From IMG/VR virus record IMGVR_UViG_3300045988_183421: 64,000 bases of DNA, one strand, 5' to 3'. Shown piece after piece: positions 18,001-19,680 of the stretch. The position numbers and the translations under genes were made by a program. The stretch's first letter is position 1. Each line of letters opens with the position of its first letter. Source of the stretch: a virus. The notes under the pieces are model-generated. The model ran no database searches, was not told the origin of the DNA, and saw only the letters and a program-made list of their open reading frames with translations.

Positions 18001-19680
18001 GGCGACAACTCCTATACCATCAGCACTGTAAAGGCTGGCGAGAGCGTAACGCTTAACTTCACCTATGTGGTAGTTACCGCTGATGCTCCTAAGGTTCTGA
18101 ACGCTGCTGTTGTGAAAGACCCGACACCGCCTATCGATGTTGAAAAGGATGCCGATAAGTATATCGCTAAGGTGACAGATGTTGTGACCTACACCATTAC
18201 GGTGAAGAATACGACAGACAAAACCGTAAACGATATCACTGTCGCAGACCATAACAACTTTGCGGGTGATGTTACGGCTGAGAGTTCTAACCGCTATACC
18301 TATAACGGAGACGGTACTTGGACTATCGGTTATCTGGATGCCGGTGAGGCTCTTGATATCGTTTATACCTATACGGTAGAGACGACCGATGAGAGCGTTA
18401 TGGAGAATACCGCAACCATTAAGTACACGCACGATGGCGAGCAGTATAATATCCCGTCCAATACAGTCGATGTGAAGAAGCCTGATGATGGCGTTGTCAC
18501 CATCTGGAAGTCTGCAAACAAGACTGTCGCAAAGCCGGGTGAGACTGTCACCTATACCGTAACGGTACACAATGGCAAAGACCACGATATTCAGAATGCT
18601 GCTCTGACTGATGAGAATAACTTCTCCGGAAGCATTTTCGCAGTGGATGGCGCTGGTTATCACTATGAGAATGGTGTATTCACCATCGACACGATTCCTG
18701 CTGGCGGCGATGTGGTTGTCCACTACGCTTATACTGTCGGTATCGCCGATGTGACCACGCACATTCTTGAAAACGTAGCGACGATTCATGTTCCCGGTAC
18801 GAACCCTGAAGACCCGGAGAATCCCGGACAGGGTAAAGACCCGACGAAACCGATTGACCCTGATACGGATATTCCGTCCAACAAGGTCGATGTGGAAGTT
18901 CCGGGTTCCGGTACGGAAACGGATGTTCCGCTCGAAAAGAGCCTCACGATTGTGAAGAGTGCTGACAAGACGAAAGTCAATGTCGGTGAAACCATCAATT
19001 ATCGTGTGGTAGTAACCAATACTGGTGAAGTAGACCTTGTCAATGTAACCGTAAAGGACAACAATGACGGCGCAAGCCATATTGAAGCTCAGAACGGTGA
19101 TGGATATACTTACAATAGCGCAACGACAACGTTCACTATTGCTCGTATCCCTGTTGGCGAATCCTTCACTCTGACCTATTCTTATGTTGCCGTTGACGCG
19201 GATGCCGGACACGATGTCATTAACGTGGCTGTCGCTAAGGCTCCGGGTCAGAATCCCGAAGACCCCGAGAATCCGGGTCATGGTAAGGACCCGTCCAAGC
19301 CGATTGATGAAGATGTAGAGAAACCTTCCAACGAGGTGAAAGTCCCTGTTGTGAAACCCTCTACTCCCACAACGCCTGACGAGCCTAAACCGACTCCGAC
19401 TCCCGACAACCCGAAGCCTACTCCGACCCCTGTTCCTACTGAGAAGCCCAAGACCCCGCCGATTGGCTGGCTCGATATCTTCAAGGTAGACGGCAAACCC
19501 TTCTCCCTCTTCTCTATCTTCACGAGCAACAAGAAGACGGGTATCGGATTTGCACAGAGCATTGTTGGGCTGGTAGCAATGGTTGGCATTGGCGTCGCTG
19601 CTCTGGTGGTAGTAAACCACAAGCGCAAGAAGGACGAAAACGACAACAAAGATAACCATAAGGATGATTCTGCTGAATAA
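1..19680 (+). CDS. Giant cell-surface adhesin of at least 6557 aa. The reading frame is open from the window edge, so the 5' end is probably outside the window. It has a non-repetitive N-terminal region, a Gly-rich domain, MBG (YGD) repeats, DUF11-like repeats, a Pro/Thr-rich linker, an NKKTG sorting motif, a transmembrane helix and a basic tail.
   Basis: One uninterrupted ORF. There is no signal peptide after the first Met. It contains YGDxDP MBG motifs and repeated 'TIxKSADK..VVTYTITVxN' DUF11-like units. The C-terminus reads 'SNKKTGIGFAQSIVGLVAMVGIGVAALVVVNHKRKKDEND'. Confidence 0.9.
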   Translation, partial: AIMSSGGSHGPFLKTTIYGSESLRIRSNGGFTYEEAMVNPDIKHRTPTNWPYKFSVGQTVPAALTHSNGQVAFDDIWVQYNGCASDFTNAGLGKLYEPTVDGRKGTNNFYLAGSGNFVMNQIGHLPLDDGGGHINRASPQEMQLCVNTLMWISQRKQCEVCAADQADQQMTHFVHRVNAANAKKILTALANGGSYWYPLSDCYELMEDLDLTKLGFDSTTWKPIKNFTGHWNSKYFDVKVPKDGALFDNTTGDLGAYRTGDGNDWNLGTDRLKGWDTVFKDSGNSSPSVRTTGIARIYGKLSDAKLFNDGQVHEGYTVHIRYEDNTALLQEGDDFSCVVNNVDQYCISNLPCIYVGGKTILRARVYDKAGNEVTKYGPIVAKVPPHFWNDCETVPLELLTIEATPIENYRYWEGETTKVLEGSGIIYNQPISNESVTWYYRVVDLRNTNNALSDWVKIGHYGQFTTEDGAVTGIIKTPVFHDGNDGVYNYPHSSVDVQLQMLAYTGNAIQLRTDYEVEGKTYSTIDPGVITPEASGIIQIEERPMSMTQAPNQRVMTQDEATFVFETDYWKGLDDKGYSYDVQYKDPYDDDWQTLATSVTFGGTYTLNTVDNSQVNKVDIEAHTVDTLAKGKETASMIHDNKWLPADFWRPDGFTDQQCAQKHTTITLTLHAADYNWSGYYFRIVASYRFNEKRTKVENSYSAIGDADNAGFDTSRYGLLQVDAPFVSATMLEARALMMQEHNSEGDATGDFGQNYWSVETTQDQVDNWNASRGDSNNPLISDKNVAVYTTTITFSPSKLTESGNRILIPVLQWGFQDDLNSESTDYKPVIDPININGYANNGNGLTTENYKDWANIVKTRYDINTDDSSVMKQVVDAIETEHSGSPFGKFTAYITIDDIKPVEDTMLNGQPFDINSAYAKWSITTSLHIESATNPMDFGTEHFYFQCKPYLEYIRGYNSTKLKSQTITNTLAHNFDYVNGGIDEDNTDTGAELWLDYNISIHANERNLVSCGVDKHSIFMYPELTIEAPNGLRYIMSRYQIVNEFPYGKHRDTSRTVFNQSDHLSVNLGTQYRGQMTTVTRYDMNGNPSQIDVQGKTMAELGISLDERGYLDKNNEDYAPYLDHGYALWSDYSYPKEIWQWFWRNAIQYHCYDMEEFDGTNEQVFFYIDEKNVRAADKSFKANDGNNPTSSWTAPFDATYQIDLWGAGGGNASMTDGISGNSGSHTIITADIKEGTTLYFVAGGAGGGGSGGGSGGGSTGSGSGGSGGYNGGGSGGVGAVFYDCYKGGGDPDHSYHSNSPIGFGGGGGATTVAFGLIGDGQLKNYGDGSPMFGVAGGGSGAAIISGNGYTERGVGGSGSDYSGQRYHCALKEDKVFSDGYEYHHGDICGWTYSGPHSSDIKMQREDEEGYNNTLHENGGGSGWQSASTDGALRGSSYAASVGENLDNGNIIIKANVTGANQLNDGAGSGIGQAGRAKIKVVDLNKRLYRRVGKNAMDIGFEDANECTPTRAKVMLTVANKMYDGNQLTVTAHVVWDGDTDAGIDEQEILRGVNITYSNNESPNITYPTNATTDSKKKPLVRTGSYTATATYTGKYEVTFCWENTKPGKTYVVRGESTTPDEYVSGNGNVVYFDIYPRPLHLYSYDNNKIYDNISTAKVSDIKIKAATADSGIVHGDTVALNSTLAYGYYCENYAPEDFAKTSFRESIHTGLHSIKTVTILELINNPFDNYYIASEDFTGTINPRPLYVHSQYHDVNKYKWNYDGNSNDIGNGKYLTDTTVYDNQNVTIEQAYEMILAGKQENIDITRYTKTEQDNYQNTVVNPNNIKVYDSYYNANIGEEGQGNIYIDNITNYDSVELNAQTYVGSYADSNAGEQLTGYDANGDNGVIKEDRYNGLSTNTIRHLPYSVKYSYSTTTPQVGQKMTVTIAVTNKDTGYGLAAQNNYVAPVAIQNLRLKSRFAGNGPITLKSTNGIRMNQQGTEFYIDTIPVGGTVNIEFEYTVQDIDDTNALVRDIEQNNEMYLVNNNYNDYYIADKTFSGGIYRTTLRAQVKSVSTTYGHGFKNIKLPYADDVYYWNKGSDSWLTMEGLVEDHKTASSDDEKLDLKAKKTNNYQSKFVYNVVPSETTDAGSYPVSYIGLNEFNYDVLKNYVVTEDPGSIEVKPRKIMISVDESQKIYGTTNPFFNSTFKVLGTDDQGNELDVSDENNWTVLGDDATVDYNNMHLIGNDTIGNVVEVVNGVSRTALAFKNGTSNLPYLTTATQSSDVIYQTDVPEEECAYCLEKYNEMHKGHEHYHDDDHPHTHVPVNGYPVSVNENTGYGNTLGIKTVTNSEGQVVSNYELVYESNVLKVHPRLIRIAALDATKAYGGTEPALKWTVDGEIIKPTSEMLGIKAVRDSGENVRDEGYTIRISYEKSTASNYIVETNDAKMTITPVPLTIVFGNQERYYGEDNKNDYTLTVVGLKHGDTADVALKNNDGATAKVLETAKNTLSDYINLTYNKYTDVGSNYLYGDKSYCEEHTILVPRENADGGYNYTIANYTPGVLTIKPRPMLLEVTGWQKELGDADKVQDFTLTDMITHNSVNGQQKLGAGSRITDASVVVNPDKVPIVFNLVRAEGEEVGSYPVYSTPQDRQIGNLAANDQKQLELDNPNYDFEYRYANDLIVKRQGLMITVDDKVRYYGDRVNRFYDGSTDYTYHVFKVENGEAVEITAEEAGINTNSFTFTHLDTQTSSSGTYKDCISLSGVHSTIYDDDDITITAGNLTIIPRPVSVIAEDNTKVYGDADPELKYTLHDGVRGEDGNYYIEYANGPVLTEKEGADVPVQPGDLEGTGVTREPGEDVWTGEHSFGKAYAINANDISPVSKDGITNYVITMENGNFTITPAELVVTVKGGYSKTYGEENPAFDADITGFKRDDTKETVLNGELGFATLCFDLSDAGKYIVTAGNNNEDAVNPDCVVLEDGEEHIGSTFEVKSNTNFEKNYVIRYVNGDITVNPKELIVRIDHKVKTYGTADPAFTFHYEDNAGNVIGLIDPENSPLNVELYRTKGENVVRGDVTAADSLNKWGTTLYDGDYLISAKYDTNNKNYAVTVYDGSLKIIPATLTVTVDGGYKTTYGDEIPEFTYSITGFVGRDVKDETGTGIKDDESKVSGTATMYCNDNAGNPVTNKTKVGNYPINYDRQQLVADNSNYKFIYVGGDLTIGKKPIHVKADDQQKVYGEKDPDPLTWTITDPEELVNPGDEDFFDITTKRPGADTDDGEQVGKYPITIDGTDPSGNYEIITTPGTLTIVPATIVVTVIDDEKYFGEDNPTPNVTITGYKRGDTIDDIGGKDALKTKTDAEKWSPVGEYPVSAKDSTFHNPNYDFVYIDGKLTVKPLIINIKAEDDRKTYGDNDPDKFNVSYTLTNEKDETYTPDKDLRDYIDRALNLDAARVPGENVRTENPGYSIVPTYTEVDNIEIGTVTPGHFFIDPREVTITANSAEKVYDGTPLTEPGYTYAPELVDNDLLGIHDKMDSVTVTGSQTEVGSSKNVPSDAVIINTEDGSGSNANYIIKYVDGTLTVRDKEIVSIEKSADRERATDYDVIRYTITVTNATSHDLHNVVVKDTNNFVGVPVLSQANGVTYDAEKGEFVIAEISHLRDETHTNAVTFTYTYTVDPTDHGTNNNDILENNAKITDMKVVESYTENPDGSTTPNYTEPEKDWLVKTPDVDVEIIRQNLTIEKSADKTEAGVGDVVTYTLKVTNTGNTKLENVVVKDTNNFMGEPVENTKLHFGYRVNDDGTWTITSLGVGKSVTITYKYTVVADDLANGKLDNIATATIPAREDPTIPEKPVDSNEVIVPLYYKHLTIVKSADRDHAYPGEVVKYQVTITNDGTVDMTNVTVSDNTNALGMFIVSTGDGYTYNPETRLFTIPALNVGDSVTLNYLYIVQNGDPETIINVATAHAPKNPDTEIPGDKDIEEPSKPVEVDVLRDELTIVKNADKSFVDMNGNDTTVTYTLTVKNSGNTKLTNVIVTDTSNGNGTVEYTGDLMYDGNGKWMIPELNAGDSVEITYVYTAVAEDMNLDNGNIVNTAVAEGKNPDNKTVTSDPDTETVHVGEVPDRDIRVVKTSLESSVMIGDTIHYTITVTNNGTMAAQNVVVRDFNDGIGEINAASSDKYTYDAATHSFTIAEIAAGEVVEIPVTYTVQEGDKDVVNNAAVEIPEVPEIEKKADKQTVVVGEVVTYTITVTNTTNETKTNVEVKDTNNFTGVITPAENTDVVSYIGDKVWNISSIGAGESVDIVYTYTVMNEDAPNTMLVNNAEMTYVTDSGKVKIPSNEVDIPVIPETPTPEHVGPTVVKQADKAIANIGDTVHYTVVMHNNDTVDYVNAALHDKNNFNGVITNVKNGTLESASAGSAVIKVGTIPAGKTVTVEYDYIVLNTDAGKGQDTYNELKNMATLHYWFADEDQTPENEKTKPSNEVTVKVPGSDVPVPVNPPEGKLKVEKFVDKKSASVGDMLNYTVKVSNVGDGELKNVLIEDFFDGHGKLNYIPTVGVVVNGDGTYTINKLPAGTFMELRFTYVIVEGDEPEVLNAAVVTTPPVDPPLEPTKTADKKFAFVDEIVTYTISVYNPDTKAKTNVTVKDTNNFVGSINAANTDKYTYNGDNTWTIPEIGAGETIGITYTYTVQSNDEKLLENKADVTYSENGDTVKLDTPTVDVVVPDKGTVSIHKEADKKMAKPGEVVTYNVTVTNNKGFDVHDVVVTDANNFAGEITGVDGADYTFENGEFHIAEIAAGASVTLTYTYTVEIGDVPTQILENIATADVPGTNPEDPNNPGHGKDPNKPIDNDEKIPSNPVDVEVPGSETETKIPDLVLTKSVDKNEAVVGDTLNYTITVKNNGKGDAENVTVKDFFDGKGTLNFVAMDGVTDNGDDTYTIASVKAGESVTLNFTYVVVDGDAPEVLNAAIIKTPEPPTDIVKSADKHIAKVNEIVTYTITVKNNSKDTLTNLLVSDTNNFKGEIEAKDGKGYTYNGDKTWTIATLESGKSIDITYTYTMQASDETVIENTADVRYSYNGTDYDIPSNPVEVEKPNDGVVTIFKTADKTKAEPNEVVTYTVTIHNGKDYDIKNVRLTDANNFAGKIEGVDGAGYKFTNGEFVIDKIPAGGDAVVRYTYTVQIADVPTKILENVATAHVPGKNPGDPDEEIPSNKVDVEVPGDGTHVDVPEGKLEIVKSVDKTEAKVGDTLNYTITLTNVGGQAVKNAVVKDFFDGNGVLNFVPMDGVTDNGDYTYTVANVEKGQSITLRFTYTVVAGDAPMVLNAAVVKDPTPPVDIEKTADKHVAMVDEVVNYTITVKNTTDKTVTDLLVSDTNNFTGAITSKDNAKYTYNGNHTWTIPSIKAGESIDILYTYTVKTTDPSTLVNEADVRYTTDDGEYVIKADPVEVVVPKDGEVTIVKSGDKKIAEPGEVVTYTVTIHNGKAHDITNVVVSDSNNFAGTITGTNGVGYKFVDGHFVIDKIAAGADAVLTYTYTVQIADVPTHILENVATAHVPGTNPEDPENPGHGKDPDKPIDPDTDIPSNKVEVKVPGSEVETEIPEISITKSVDKPTAKIGDTLNYTVTVKNGGNADAENILIKDFFDGNGTLNFKAMDGVTDNGDNTYTISTVKAGESVKLRFSYVVVEGDEPLVLNAAVIKNPTPPIDVEKEADKHIAKVDEVVTYTISVKNTTSEPVDNVTVTDTNNFKGEIKAENADKYTYNGNKTWTIPTIAAGETIHITYTYTMQAEDATVIENIANVTYSKDGTDYNIPSNPVDVEKPDDGVVTIRKAADKTKAEPGEVVTYTVTVHNGKNHDIENARLTDTNNFAGEIVSVEGADYTFENGEFTINKIPAGGDVVIHYTYTVEIADVPTQILENIATIHVPGTNPEDPNNPGHGKDPEKPIDPDTEIPSNKVDVEVPGSETETEIPVIEITKSVDKAEAKVGDTLNYMVTVANKGKIDAENVVVEDFFDGNGTLNFVPMDGVADNGDNSYTISTVKAGESVTLNFTYVVVTADAPKVLNAAVVKDPTPPIDVEKDADKYIAKVTDVVTYTITVKNTTDKTVNDITVADHNNFAGDVTAESSNRYTYNGDGTWTIGYLDAGEALDIVYTYTVETTDESVMENTATIKYTHDGEQYNIPSNTVDVKKPDDGVVTIWKSANKTVAKPGETVTYTVTVHNGKDHDIQNAALTDENNFSGSIFAVDGAGYHYENGVFTIDTIPAGGDVVVHYAYTVGIADVTTHILENVATIHVPGTNPEDPENPGQGKDPTKPIDPDTDIPSNKVDVEVPGSGTETDVPLEKSLTIVKSADKTKVNVGETINYRVVVTNTGEVDLVNVTVKDNNDGASHIEAQNGDGYTYNSATTTFTIARIPVGESFTLTYSYVAVDADAGHDVINVAVAKAPGQNPEDPENPGHGKDPSKPIDEDVEKPSNEVKVPVVKPSTPTTPDEPKPTPTPDNPKPTPTPVPTEKPKTPPIGWLDIFKVDGKPFSLFSIFTSNKKTGIGFAQSIVGLVAMVGIGVAALVVVNHKRKKDENDNKDNHKDDSAE
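3600..4110 (+). repeat. Low-complexity glycine-rich region (GGAGGGGSGGGSGGGSTGSGSGG...) inside the giant adhesin.
   Basis: Runs of ggt/ggc codons. Translation is 'LWGAGGGNASMTDGISGNSGSHTIITADIKEGTTLYFVAGGAGGGGSGGGSGG...'. Confidence 0.6.
4890..10690 (+). repeat. Array of roughly 25 MBG-domain (YGD/YGE...P...YT) repeats, each 70-80 aa, inside adhesin 1.
   Basis: Recurring 'K(V/T)YGDADPELKYT', 'KTYGEENPAFDADITGFKRDD' and 'KVYGEKDPDPLTWTITDPEEL' motifs. Confidence 0.7.
10690..19320 (+). repeat. Array of DUF11-like ('conserved repeat domain') Ig-like repeats of about 120 aa each inside adhesin 1.
   Basis: Recurring 'L(T/S)IxKSADKxxAxxGD(V/T)VxYTIxVxNTGNxxLxNVxVxDTNNFxG....YTYTV' units. Confidence 0.7.
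14401..19300 (+). repeat. About 4.5 tandem copies of a roughly 1.09-kb (362-aa) super-repeat, each containing three DUF11-like domains.
   Basis: Unit starts at 14401, 15510, 16578, 17684, 18790 and 19231, each beginning 'V/H VPGTNPEDP(N/E)NPGHGKDPxKPID'. Nucleotide identity between units is high. Confidence 0.75.
19528..19542 (+). other. Putative sortase-B-type cell-wall sorting motif NKKTG of adhesin 1, followed by a transmembrane helix and a positively charged tail.
   Basis: The codons aac aag aag acg ggt are followed by 'IGFAQSIVGLVAMVGIGVAALVVV' and then 'NHKRKK'. Confidence 0.5.

Follow-up and report, generated by a model that had tools for sequence, protein, structure and literature searches.

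Which enzyme attaches the giant surface proteins of a Hodor megaplasmid to the cell wall of its host? The question is raised by a 64,000-nucleotide stretch of DNA filed as a virus (IMG/VR record IMGVR_UViG_3300045988_183421; hereafter the window), which encodes two very large secreted proteins (giant 1 and giant 2) and a class B sortase (SrtB), all on the plus strand. On sequence evidence, we consider this sortase the best candidate for the enzyme that reads the sorting signals of both giants, with a probability of roughly 60%. Hodors are conjugative megaplasmids of 211-389 kilobases (kb) from human gut metagenomes, originally catalogued with the huge phages (Yuan et al., bioRxiv 22 Feb 2026, PMC12934698). 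The window is part of such a megaplasmid of gut Firmicutes and carries a self-contained surface-display module: it contains the hyp-SecY-SecG-SecE-trigger factor-class B sortase region described in the preprint, together with one giant of more than 7,300 amino acids (aa; length from relatives) and another of ~2,640 aa. The corresponding Hodor proteins, of 7,309-7,704 aa with a neighbour of ~2,642 aa, contain MBG domains, begin with a signal peptide and have a sorting signal composed of motif, helix and basic tail, and both were reported as putative sortase-anchored proteins (PMC12934698); the module described there and that of the window are the same object. Related contigs also fit the Hodor description, being 346-389 kb long in IMG/VR and occurring in addition in Hadza gut assemblies, with near-identical contigs reaching 346 kb. 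The genes for Rep_3, ParA/ParB and type IV secretion, which are further Hodor traits, lie outside the window.

The element and the general idea of sortase-anchored giants are already published, and what is left to add is an assignment of the enzyme and a definition of the motif, which a text search of the preprint's main text for KTG, PTG and LPXTG did not find named (PMC12934698). Here we set out the motifs and how the tails are built, assign the sortase to a class, and show how the genes are linked and how narrowly sortase and tails are distributed. New in this work are the motif detail and its distribution, that is, a T-G-[IV] core with its variants, the privacy of the tail family and of the sortase clade, and, as outside support, a sortase operon on a different element (L101). 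No mention of NKKTG, NYKTG, QAPTG or PSKTG in a sortase context was found in the literature searched.

Giant 1 (7..19680, plus strand) has its N-terminus cut by the window edge. A first-pass annotation, made from the DNA letters, had given its length as 6,500 aa or more, which agrees with the 6,557 aa in the window; the protein runs off the left edge, however, and is 7,323 aa at full length in a near-identical relative (P0066). Its N-terminal Sec signal peptide (...TIAYA|AEP) was read from the relatives L040 and P0066. Giant 2 (20108..28051, plus strand) starts at the ATG at 20108, has the 2,647 aa previously assigned to it, and carries the signal peptide MQKPRKRFLSAIVAVAMCLSQFAPVTAYA|VES (MQKPRKRF...VTAYA|VES). 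Pfam models identify MBG_2, DUF11 and DUF7507 in the giants, giant 1 carrying MBG (YGX) domains and dozens of DUF11/CLIPPER repeats and giant 2 containing MBG domains. The signal peptides of giant 1 and giant 2 are alike across lineages (MQK..K.R…A.LA..M..S.F…AYA; window 20108-20200; L040 7691-7870; L043 10001-10150 and 30559-30710), a shared look that may stem either from common descent or from targeting to the SecYEG of the plasmid itself.

The C-terminus of giant 1 reads ...FTS-NKKTGIGF-AQ-SIVGLVAMVGIGVAALVVV-NHKRKKD..., in which the candidate sorting motif NKKTGIGF (19528..19551, plus strand), with predicted cleavage between T and G, is followed by the hydrophobic helix SIVGLVAMVGIGVAALVVV and then the basic tail NHKRKK (19558..19632, plus strand). 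That of giant 2 reads ...VVV-NYKTGVGF-GAD-IIVPVIVVVALIGVGAFVIV-KKKKG..., with the candidate motif NYKTGVGF (27884..27907, plus strand), the hydrophobic helix IIVPVIVVVALIGVGAFVIV and then the basic tail KKKK (27917..27988, plus strand). The positions proposed by the first-pass annotation for these motifs, each with a helix and a Lys/Arg tail, are exact: translation of 19378-19700 (...FSIFTSNKKTGIGFAQSIVGLVAMVGIGVAALVVVNHKRKKDEND...*) places the NKKTG codons at 19528-19542, and translation of 27734-28050 (...APVVVNYKTGVGFGADIIVPVIVVVALIGVGAFVIVKKKKGDSEE...) places the NYKTG codons at 27884-27898. Both giants thus begin with a signal peptide and have, at the C-terminus, a T-G motif ahead of a helix and a basic tail, and peptides from tails of this kind (FTSNKKTGIGFAQ, VVVNYKTGVGFGAD and AAQAPTGVGLSAN) are candidate sortase substrates.

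These tails stand out within the window. A six-frame scan found a T-G motif with a hydrophobic stretch and a basic tail at the C-terminus of only two open reading frames (ORFs), both of them giants. The pattern N.KTG.GF occurs twice in the 9,204 residues of the two giants, compared with 0.0008 expected, each time directly before a transmembrane (TM) helix. A pattern scan of both giants found no LPxTG near either C-terminus, in line with the earlier statement that neither ends in LPXTG; the sole match to LPxT[GASN] is an internal LPTTG of giant 2, which lies ~430 residues before the end and has no TM helix after it.

The gene at 55085..56056 (plus strand), previously annotated as SrtB ~27 kb downstream of the giants, encodes a 323-aa protein that both its sequence and its predicted fold indeed place in class B. 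Its N-terminus is acidic, and a TM helix (residues 69-96) precedes the catalytic domain (~140 to 323). The catalytic residues are H209 (55709-55711), C303 (55991-55993) and R312 (56018-56020); the segments GH209S and ST302C303, and R312, align with C. perfringens SrtB, and H209, T302-C303 and R312 are invariant in 27 homologues of the sortase. Its sequence matches in the PDB are SrtB enzymes only, the best being that of C. perfringens (5b23, expectation value (E) 7e-12). The AlphaFold model has a core with a predicted local distance difference test (pLDDT) score >90, the N-terminal TM helix at 69-96, and a helix at 269-282 in the β6/β7 region, where class B enzymes have a long insertion that contains a helix. 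In a Foldseek comparison with the PDB, the 19 best matches are all class B (E 3e-16 to 2e-11; best, 4lfd), while class A matches begin at 1.5e-7, and those of class A, C and E are at least four orders of magnitude weaker than those of class B. Judged by its sequence and predicted structure, the product is a real but divergent class B sortase (MEROPS C60B): the triad and the class B matches in the PDB and in Foldseek point to the class, and a score under the cut-off of the TIGR03064 model (given below) to a divergent clade of the family.

The sortase gene is the last of a same-strand module (51005-56056), whose order, zinc-ribbon protein (zf)-SecY-SecG-SecE-trigger factor (TF)-SrtB, is kept in lineages with sortase identities of 94-99%, 75%, 69% and 64%. 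All seven of the seven IMG/VR contigs that have the sortase also carry the tails of giant 2 and of giant 1. In the 75% lineage, as represented by L015, a giant ends at 1176, SecY occupies 6658-7998 and the sortase 9767-10771, all on the same strand, and the placement of giant 2 ~5.5 kb upstream of SecY recurs in 13 metagenome loci of this lineage. Because giant 2 ends only ~5.5 kb before SecY there, the 27-kb gap between giant and sortase in the window is lineage-specific extra DNA.

Both the sortase and the tails are restricted in their distribution. Homologues of the sortase form ~42 clusters among 5.8 billion, all metagenomic, and no relative of the clade was found among 185,579 species-representative genomes. 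Annotated phage and plasmid collections gave no DNA match to the window, and at the protein level they gave only remote class B sortases. A profile of the tails, run against 1.84 billion representative proteins, returned only 10 clusters at E ≤ 0.001, all of them C-termini of these giants. The C-terminus of giant 1, compared with the species genomes, matched only DUF11 repeats of unrelated proteins, which have LPxTG, LAxTG, ISVKTGE or FSIRTGLE tails and never a Hodor-type tail. For a third lineage of giants (L043, with PSKTG and QSKTG), cluster membership and contig look-ups gave no contig in common with a sortase lineage.

Chromosomal giants with DUF11 repeats occur in metagenome-assembled genomes of uncultured Clostridia (L115 2052-6740; L117 2061-6740; L105 3-8348); their C-termini have ISVKTGE or FSIRTGLE ahead of a helix and a basic tail, which suggests that non-LPXTG signals of the [KR]-T-G type are more widespread in Clostridia. 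Sortases 38-51% identical to that of the window occur elsewhere on very large contigs, with lengths of 345 kb and, from termite gut, 127 kb (L007 1-20822 and L010 1-20807), where their neighbours are DnaE, topoisomerase, a sigma-70 factor or a RepB primase, with no Sec operon and no recognisable substrates within 10 kb.

What feature of the tails might the sortase recognise? The first-pass annotation had named N-x-K-T-G as the conserved determinant. This does not hold, because orthologues read NKQTG, QAPTG, PSKTG and QSKTG: the tails of giant 1 orthologues are NKKTGIGF (in two lineages), NKQTGIGF and PSKTGVG[LV], and those of giant 2 orthologues NYKTGVGF, QAPTGVGL and QSKTGVDL. When QSKTGVDL is left out of the tail alignment, T-G-x-G and the basic residues after the helix are invariant; across all seven tail variants, QSKTGVDL included, T-G-[IV] is the sole invariant, and the residues before it and the linker vary. 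On the aligned sequences, the motif is better written x-x-[K/Q/P]-T-G-[I/V]-[G/D]-hydrophobic, Asn at the first and Lys at the third position not being general. NKKTGIGF is identical in the lineage with the 75% identical SrtB, even though the linker upstream of it has diverged there and contains an indel. Likewise, T-G remains constant while the helix sequences of the giant 1 and giant 2 tails are only 25-28% identical.

Support from outside the Hodors comes from L101, a 146-kb metagenome contig with a guanine-cytosine (GC) content of 34%, which belongs to a different element. It encodes a sortase that is 40% identical to, and of the same clade as, the window sortase. In the L101 operon (2763-10798) this sortase directly follows three surface proteins with signal peptides and Listeria-Bacteroides repeats, one of which also has BspA-type leucine-rich repeats. 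The three proteins end in TVPTTGVGY, SVPKTGVE and GVPKTGID (VP[KT]TG[VI]), each followed by a TM helix and a basic tail. Genes of accessory sortases usually adjoin those of their substrates (PMC3019223). Because the L101 sortase adjoins three such tails and accessory sortases usually lie next to their substrates, the operon indicates, by analogy, that the clade would read [K/T]-T-G-[V/I], the core that these tails have in common with those of the Hodor giants.

The Hodor tails were also compared with the signals of characterised class B enzymes. All class B signals checked contain Pro: NPQTN, NPXTG, [SP]PxTG and (E/Q/V)(V/P)PTG (PMC3019223, PMC4155245, PMC11987632). The earlier proposal that the tails match class B specificity holds only loosely. 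What the Hodor tails share with these signals is an Asn or Gln start, a Lys, Gln or Pro ahead of Thr, and T-G; because NKKTG and NYKTG have no Pro at all, the tails resemble class B signals and do not belong to any motif class known so far. The signal of S. aureus SrtB is NPQTN, and Asn is the usual first residue of class B signals (PMC3019223, PMC11987632); B. anthracis SrtB depends critically on the residues that flank its pentapeptide on either side (PMC11987632). The SrtB-IsdC systems of S. aureus and B. anthracis (NPQTN/NPKTG) are similar to the Hodor pair with respect to the class B fold and triad and to the small number of dedicated substrates; their motifs likewise open with Asn and have Lys or Gln ahead of Thr, and that of B. 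anthracis also has T-G. In contrast, the Hodor sortase is only 21-27% identical to these enzymes, its presumed motif lacks Pro, and its presumed substrates are proteins of 2,600-7,300 aa rather than a small haem-binding protein; further, the Hodor genes are plasmid-borne and linked to a private Sec translocon, whereas the IsdC system is an iron-uptake operon. C. difficile SrtB cleaves SPKTG, PPKTG, SPSTG and SPQTG between T and G, but not LPETG, NPQTN or NVQTG (PMC4155245). It is a clostridial class B sortase; its signals ([S/P]PxTG) have the K-T-G core in common with the Hodor tails, and the PSKTG of one Hodor-like lineage is close to them. It differs in that its signal must have Pro in second place and in being a housekeeping enzyme encoded on the chromosome.

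Several observations weigh against the plasmid SrtB as the enzyme that acts on the giants. In the window it lies ~27 kb downstream of the giant 2 stop. The absence of Pro sets NKKTG and NYKTG apart from every class B motif checked, the orthologous QAPTG and PSKTG being closer, and the sortase of the 75% lineage would need to accept both NKKTGIGF and QAPTGVGL. Relatives of the sortase at 36-51% identity have no such substrates within 10 kb, except on L101. Family models do not favour the pairing either: the sortase scores 77.9 bits with TIGR03064, compared with a cut-off of 153.75, and the 55085-56056 product has no match to the Pfam Sortase family at E 0.01; no curated NCBIfam sorting-signal model (LPXTG TIGR01167, NPXTG NF033846 and others) reaches its cut-off on the isolated tails, the best score being 15.0 bits with TIGR01167 (cut-off 15.9), for the helix part only of giant 2, while giant 1 gave no match. 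Finally, Hodor genomes have been reported to encode sortases of classes A, B and C (G1) or A and B (G2), with the acting enzyme given as "class A and/or B" (PMC12934698), and the Hodor class A sortase was not found in the fetched loci, where regular-expression and hidden Markov model scans returned only the class B gene. The earlier claim that the giants are anchored by a B-class sortase is partly supported, by the three-part tails, the class of the sortase, its co-occurrence with the giants and the L101 operon; the reported class A and C enzymes, which lie outside the window, and the other points above tell against it.

Alternatively, the tails might be sorting signals processed by the Hodor class A sortase or by a host sortase, with the plasmid SrtB having other substrates or another role, an arrangement which the 27-kb distance in the window would suit but which we regard as unlikely. 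Leu-Pro at the first two motif positions, which class A enzymes require, is absent from all seven tail variants, which speaks against processing by class A. SrtB is the only sortase of the conserved module that adjoins the giants; there is no second sortase in the ~95 kb examined around giants and module, and class A sortases are likewise absent from the window itself, from the 10 kb that precede giant 1 and from the 10 kb past the right window edge. A class A scan of IMG/VR, which used an alignment of three sequences, recovered one such enzyme (L120); it belongs to a different element of 39.5% GC, adjoins a protein with a canonical LPETG and is on no Hodor contig, and was dropped as a candidate for the Hodor class A sortase. 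The window ORFs scanned, a subset of the total, gave no match to exosortase or rhombosortase-type families. Small-residue motifs are common at helix starts, and the tails might instead never be cleaved, T-G-x-G being a structural feature of the helix start and the giants remaining membrane-anchored. The failure of the sorting-signal models to reach their cut-offs would be consistent with this, as would a secreted protein encoded near giant 2 (29714-30910), which also ends in a TM helix and an acidic/charged tail and has no T-G motif. We consider this reading improbable in view of the fixed T-G in tails whose helix sequence changes completely between the giants; a motif, helix and basic tail at the extreme C-terminus are moreover the classic layout of sortase substrates, the giants are conserved together with a dedicated sortase, and L101 repeats the pairing of K-T-G-[VI] tails with a sortase.

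A role for SrtB in polymerisation rather than anchoring was also weighed. Spy0129 of S. pyogenes, a class B pilin polymerase, accepts (E/Q/V)(V/P)PTG (PMC3019223), signals with Gln or Glu first and Pro before Thr, to which QAPTGV of the 75% lineage and VP[KT]TG[VI] of L101 are similar. By analogy, the Hodor SrtB could join one giant to a lysine of the other, forming a composite fibre anchored by another sortase. The presence of two substrates and of more than one sortase on the element would fit this, as would a weak TIGR04226 match (isopeptide-forming fimbrial domain; E 9e-5, under the cut-off). Spy0129, however, joins pilins via lysine, and neither giant has a YPKN-type pilin motif; the domains of the giants are MBG and DUF11, not pilin folds, and Spy0129 ranks only 16th among the structural matches of the sortase, behind anchoring SrtB enzymes. 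Such a polymerase is, in our judgement, very improbable.

The reading that we prefer, in which the plasmid class B sortase acts on both giants, suggests the following pathway. Both giants (~7,323 aa and 2,647 aa) would be exported via their Sec signal peptides, probably through the plasmid SecY/SecG/SecE, and a lipoprotein foldase of the trigger-factor/FKBP type would probably assist them outside the membrane. The C-terminal helix and basic tail would hold each giant in the membrane, where the membrane-anchored SrtB would cleave between T and G of x-x-[K/Q/P]-T-G-[I/V]-[G/D]-hydrophobic (here NKKTGIGF and NYKTGVGF), and the giant would then pass from a thioester with Cys303 to a peptidoglycan precursor. 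In this scheme we infer the route through the plasmid Sec proteins, the cut at T|G, which sortase acts, and the link to the wall.

The export genes of the module precede the sortase on the plus strand. The "hyp" gene that heads it (51005..51694) encodes a zinc-ribbon protein (Pfam zf_Tbcl, E 2.7e-10), and the same position is filled in L001, L004 and L045. It is followed by the plasmid-borne SecY (51994..53334; TIGR00967 329.6 bits, cut-off 253.6; Pfam SecY, E 1e-86), on which SecY2 models score only ~145 bits, so that by score it is a canonical SecY and not a SecY2. The SecG-like small membrane protein (53350..53604; Pfam SecG, E 0.0034, short of the Pfam cut-off) corresponds to the module gene that the preprint names SecG (PMC12934698), and SecE lies at 53601..53852 (Pfam SecE, E 4.4e-8). 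The accessory Sec systems (SecA2/SecY2) of serine-rich repeat adhesins are similar in having a second SecY beside very large adhesins, which suggests a dedicated export route; they differ in that the window SecY scores as canonical and is accompanied by SecE and SecG, and no SecA2, Asp proteins or glycosyltransferases were seen in the window.

The trigger-factor-like FKBP peptidyl-prolyl isomerase (53910..55073, plus strand) matches TIGR00115 with 170.6 bits (cut-off 180.2) and Pfam FKBP_C with E 9e-17. It starts with a lipoprotein signal peptide (…IALTAC|GKN), whose lipobox is conserved in four lineages (LAAC or LTAC in the three others; L001 8826-9989, L004 8826-9980, L015 8396-9766 and L045 8797-9960). 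Because of this signal peptide, the "trigger factor" of the module is more likely a foldase anchored on the outside of the membrane than a cytosolic, ribosome-bound chaperone. Its lipoprotein nature is not mentioned in the Hodor preprint and is new here. Co-transcription of the trigger factor gene with that of SrtB has been reported, and the two Hodor groups reportedly have few genes in common, those of the module and the giants being among them (PMC12934698). Directly 3′ of the sortase, 56221-56550 and 56591-56923 encode tandem paralogous membrane proteins of ~110 aa without a family match; both end in ...AAMFGM.[KQ]RYHR, and relatives keep them (genes of 104 and 105 aa in L001 and L041).

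A strong terminator-like hairpin with a T-run lies just 3′ of the giant 1 stop (19694..19723, plus strand; 13-bp stem with 7 G-C pairs), and promoter-like sites are also present between giants 1 and 2. The giant genes are nonetheless co-transcribed according to the preprint, despite this hairpin (PMC12934698). On the 3′ side of giant 2, the plus strand encodes a small lipoprotein (28180..28887; lipobox FVGC; no family match), the position of which is kept in L043, followed by a small polytopic membrane protein without a family match (29131-29691). From the giant 2 stop to SecY there are ~24 kb in the window (28051-51994), compared with ~5.5 kb in the 75% lineage (L015 1176-6658), and this extra DNA carries a flotillin, a Dam methylase, a ParM/Alp-like actin and an IS605-type helix-turn-helix fragment (49555-50151, minus strand). 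With these genes and that of a PIN domain protein, the rest of the window looks like a mobile element.

If the pairing of SrtB with the giants holds, it would constitute an orthogonal pair of sortase and signal, with its own translocon, on a conjugative element, and would explain how a broad-host-range megaplasmid can place such enormous adhesins on a variety of Firmicutes. The known specificity of class B would then also include Pro-less motifs in which the residue that follows the cleaved glycine counts, and protein ligation could make use of a sortase whose signal is private. More tentatively, and with less confidence than we place in the pairing itself, a clade of sortases confined to giant mobile elements may read a Leu-Pro-less signal with T-G-[I/V] as its core, in place of the usual pentapeptide, and form, together with SecYEG and the lipoprotein foldase, a portable, host-independent display pathway. 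If this is true, the megaplasmid would display its own 7,300-aa adhesins on any Firmicute that it enters, neither depending on the sortases of the host nor competing with them.

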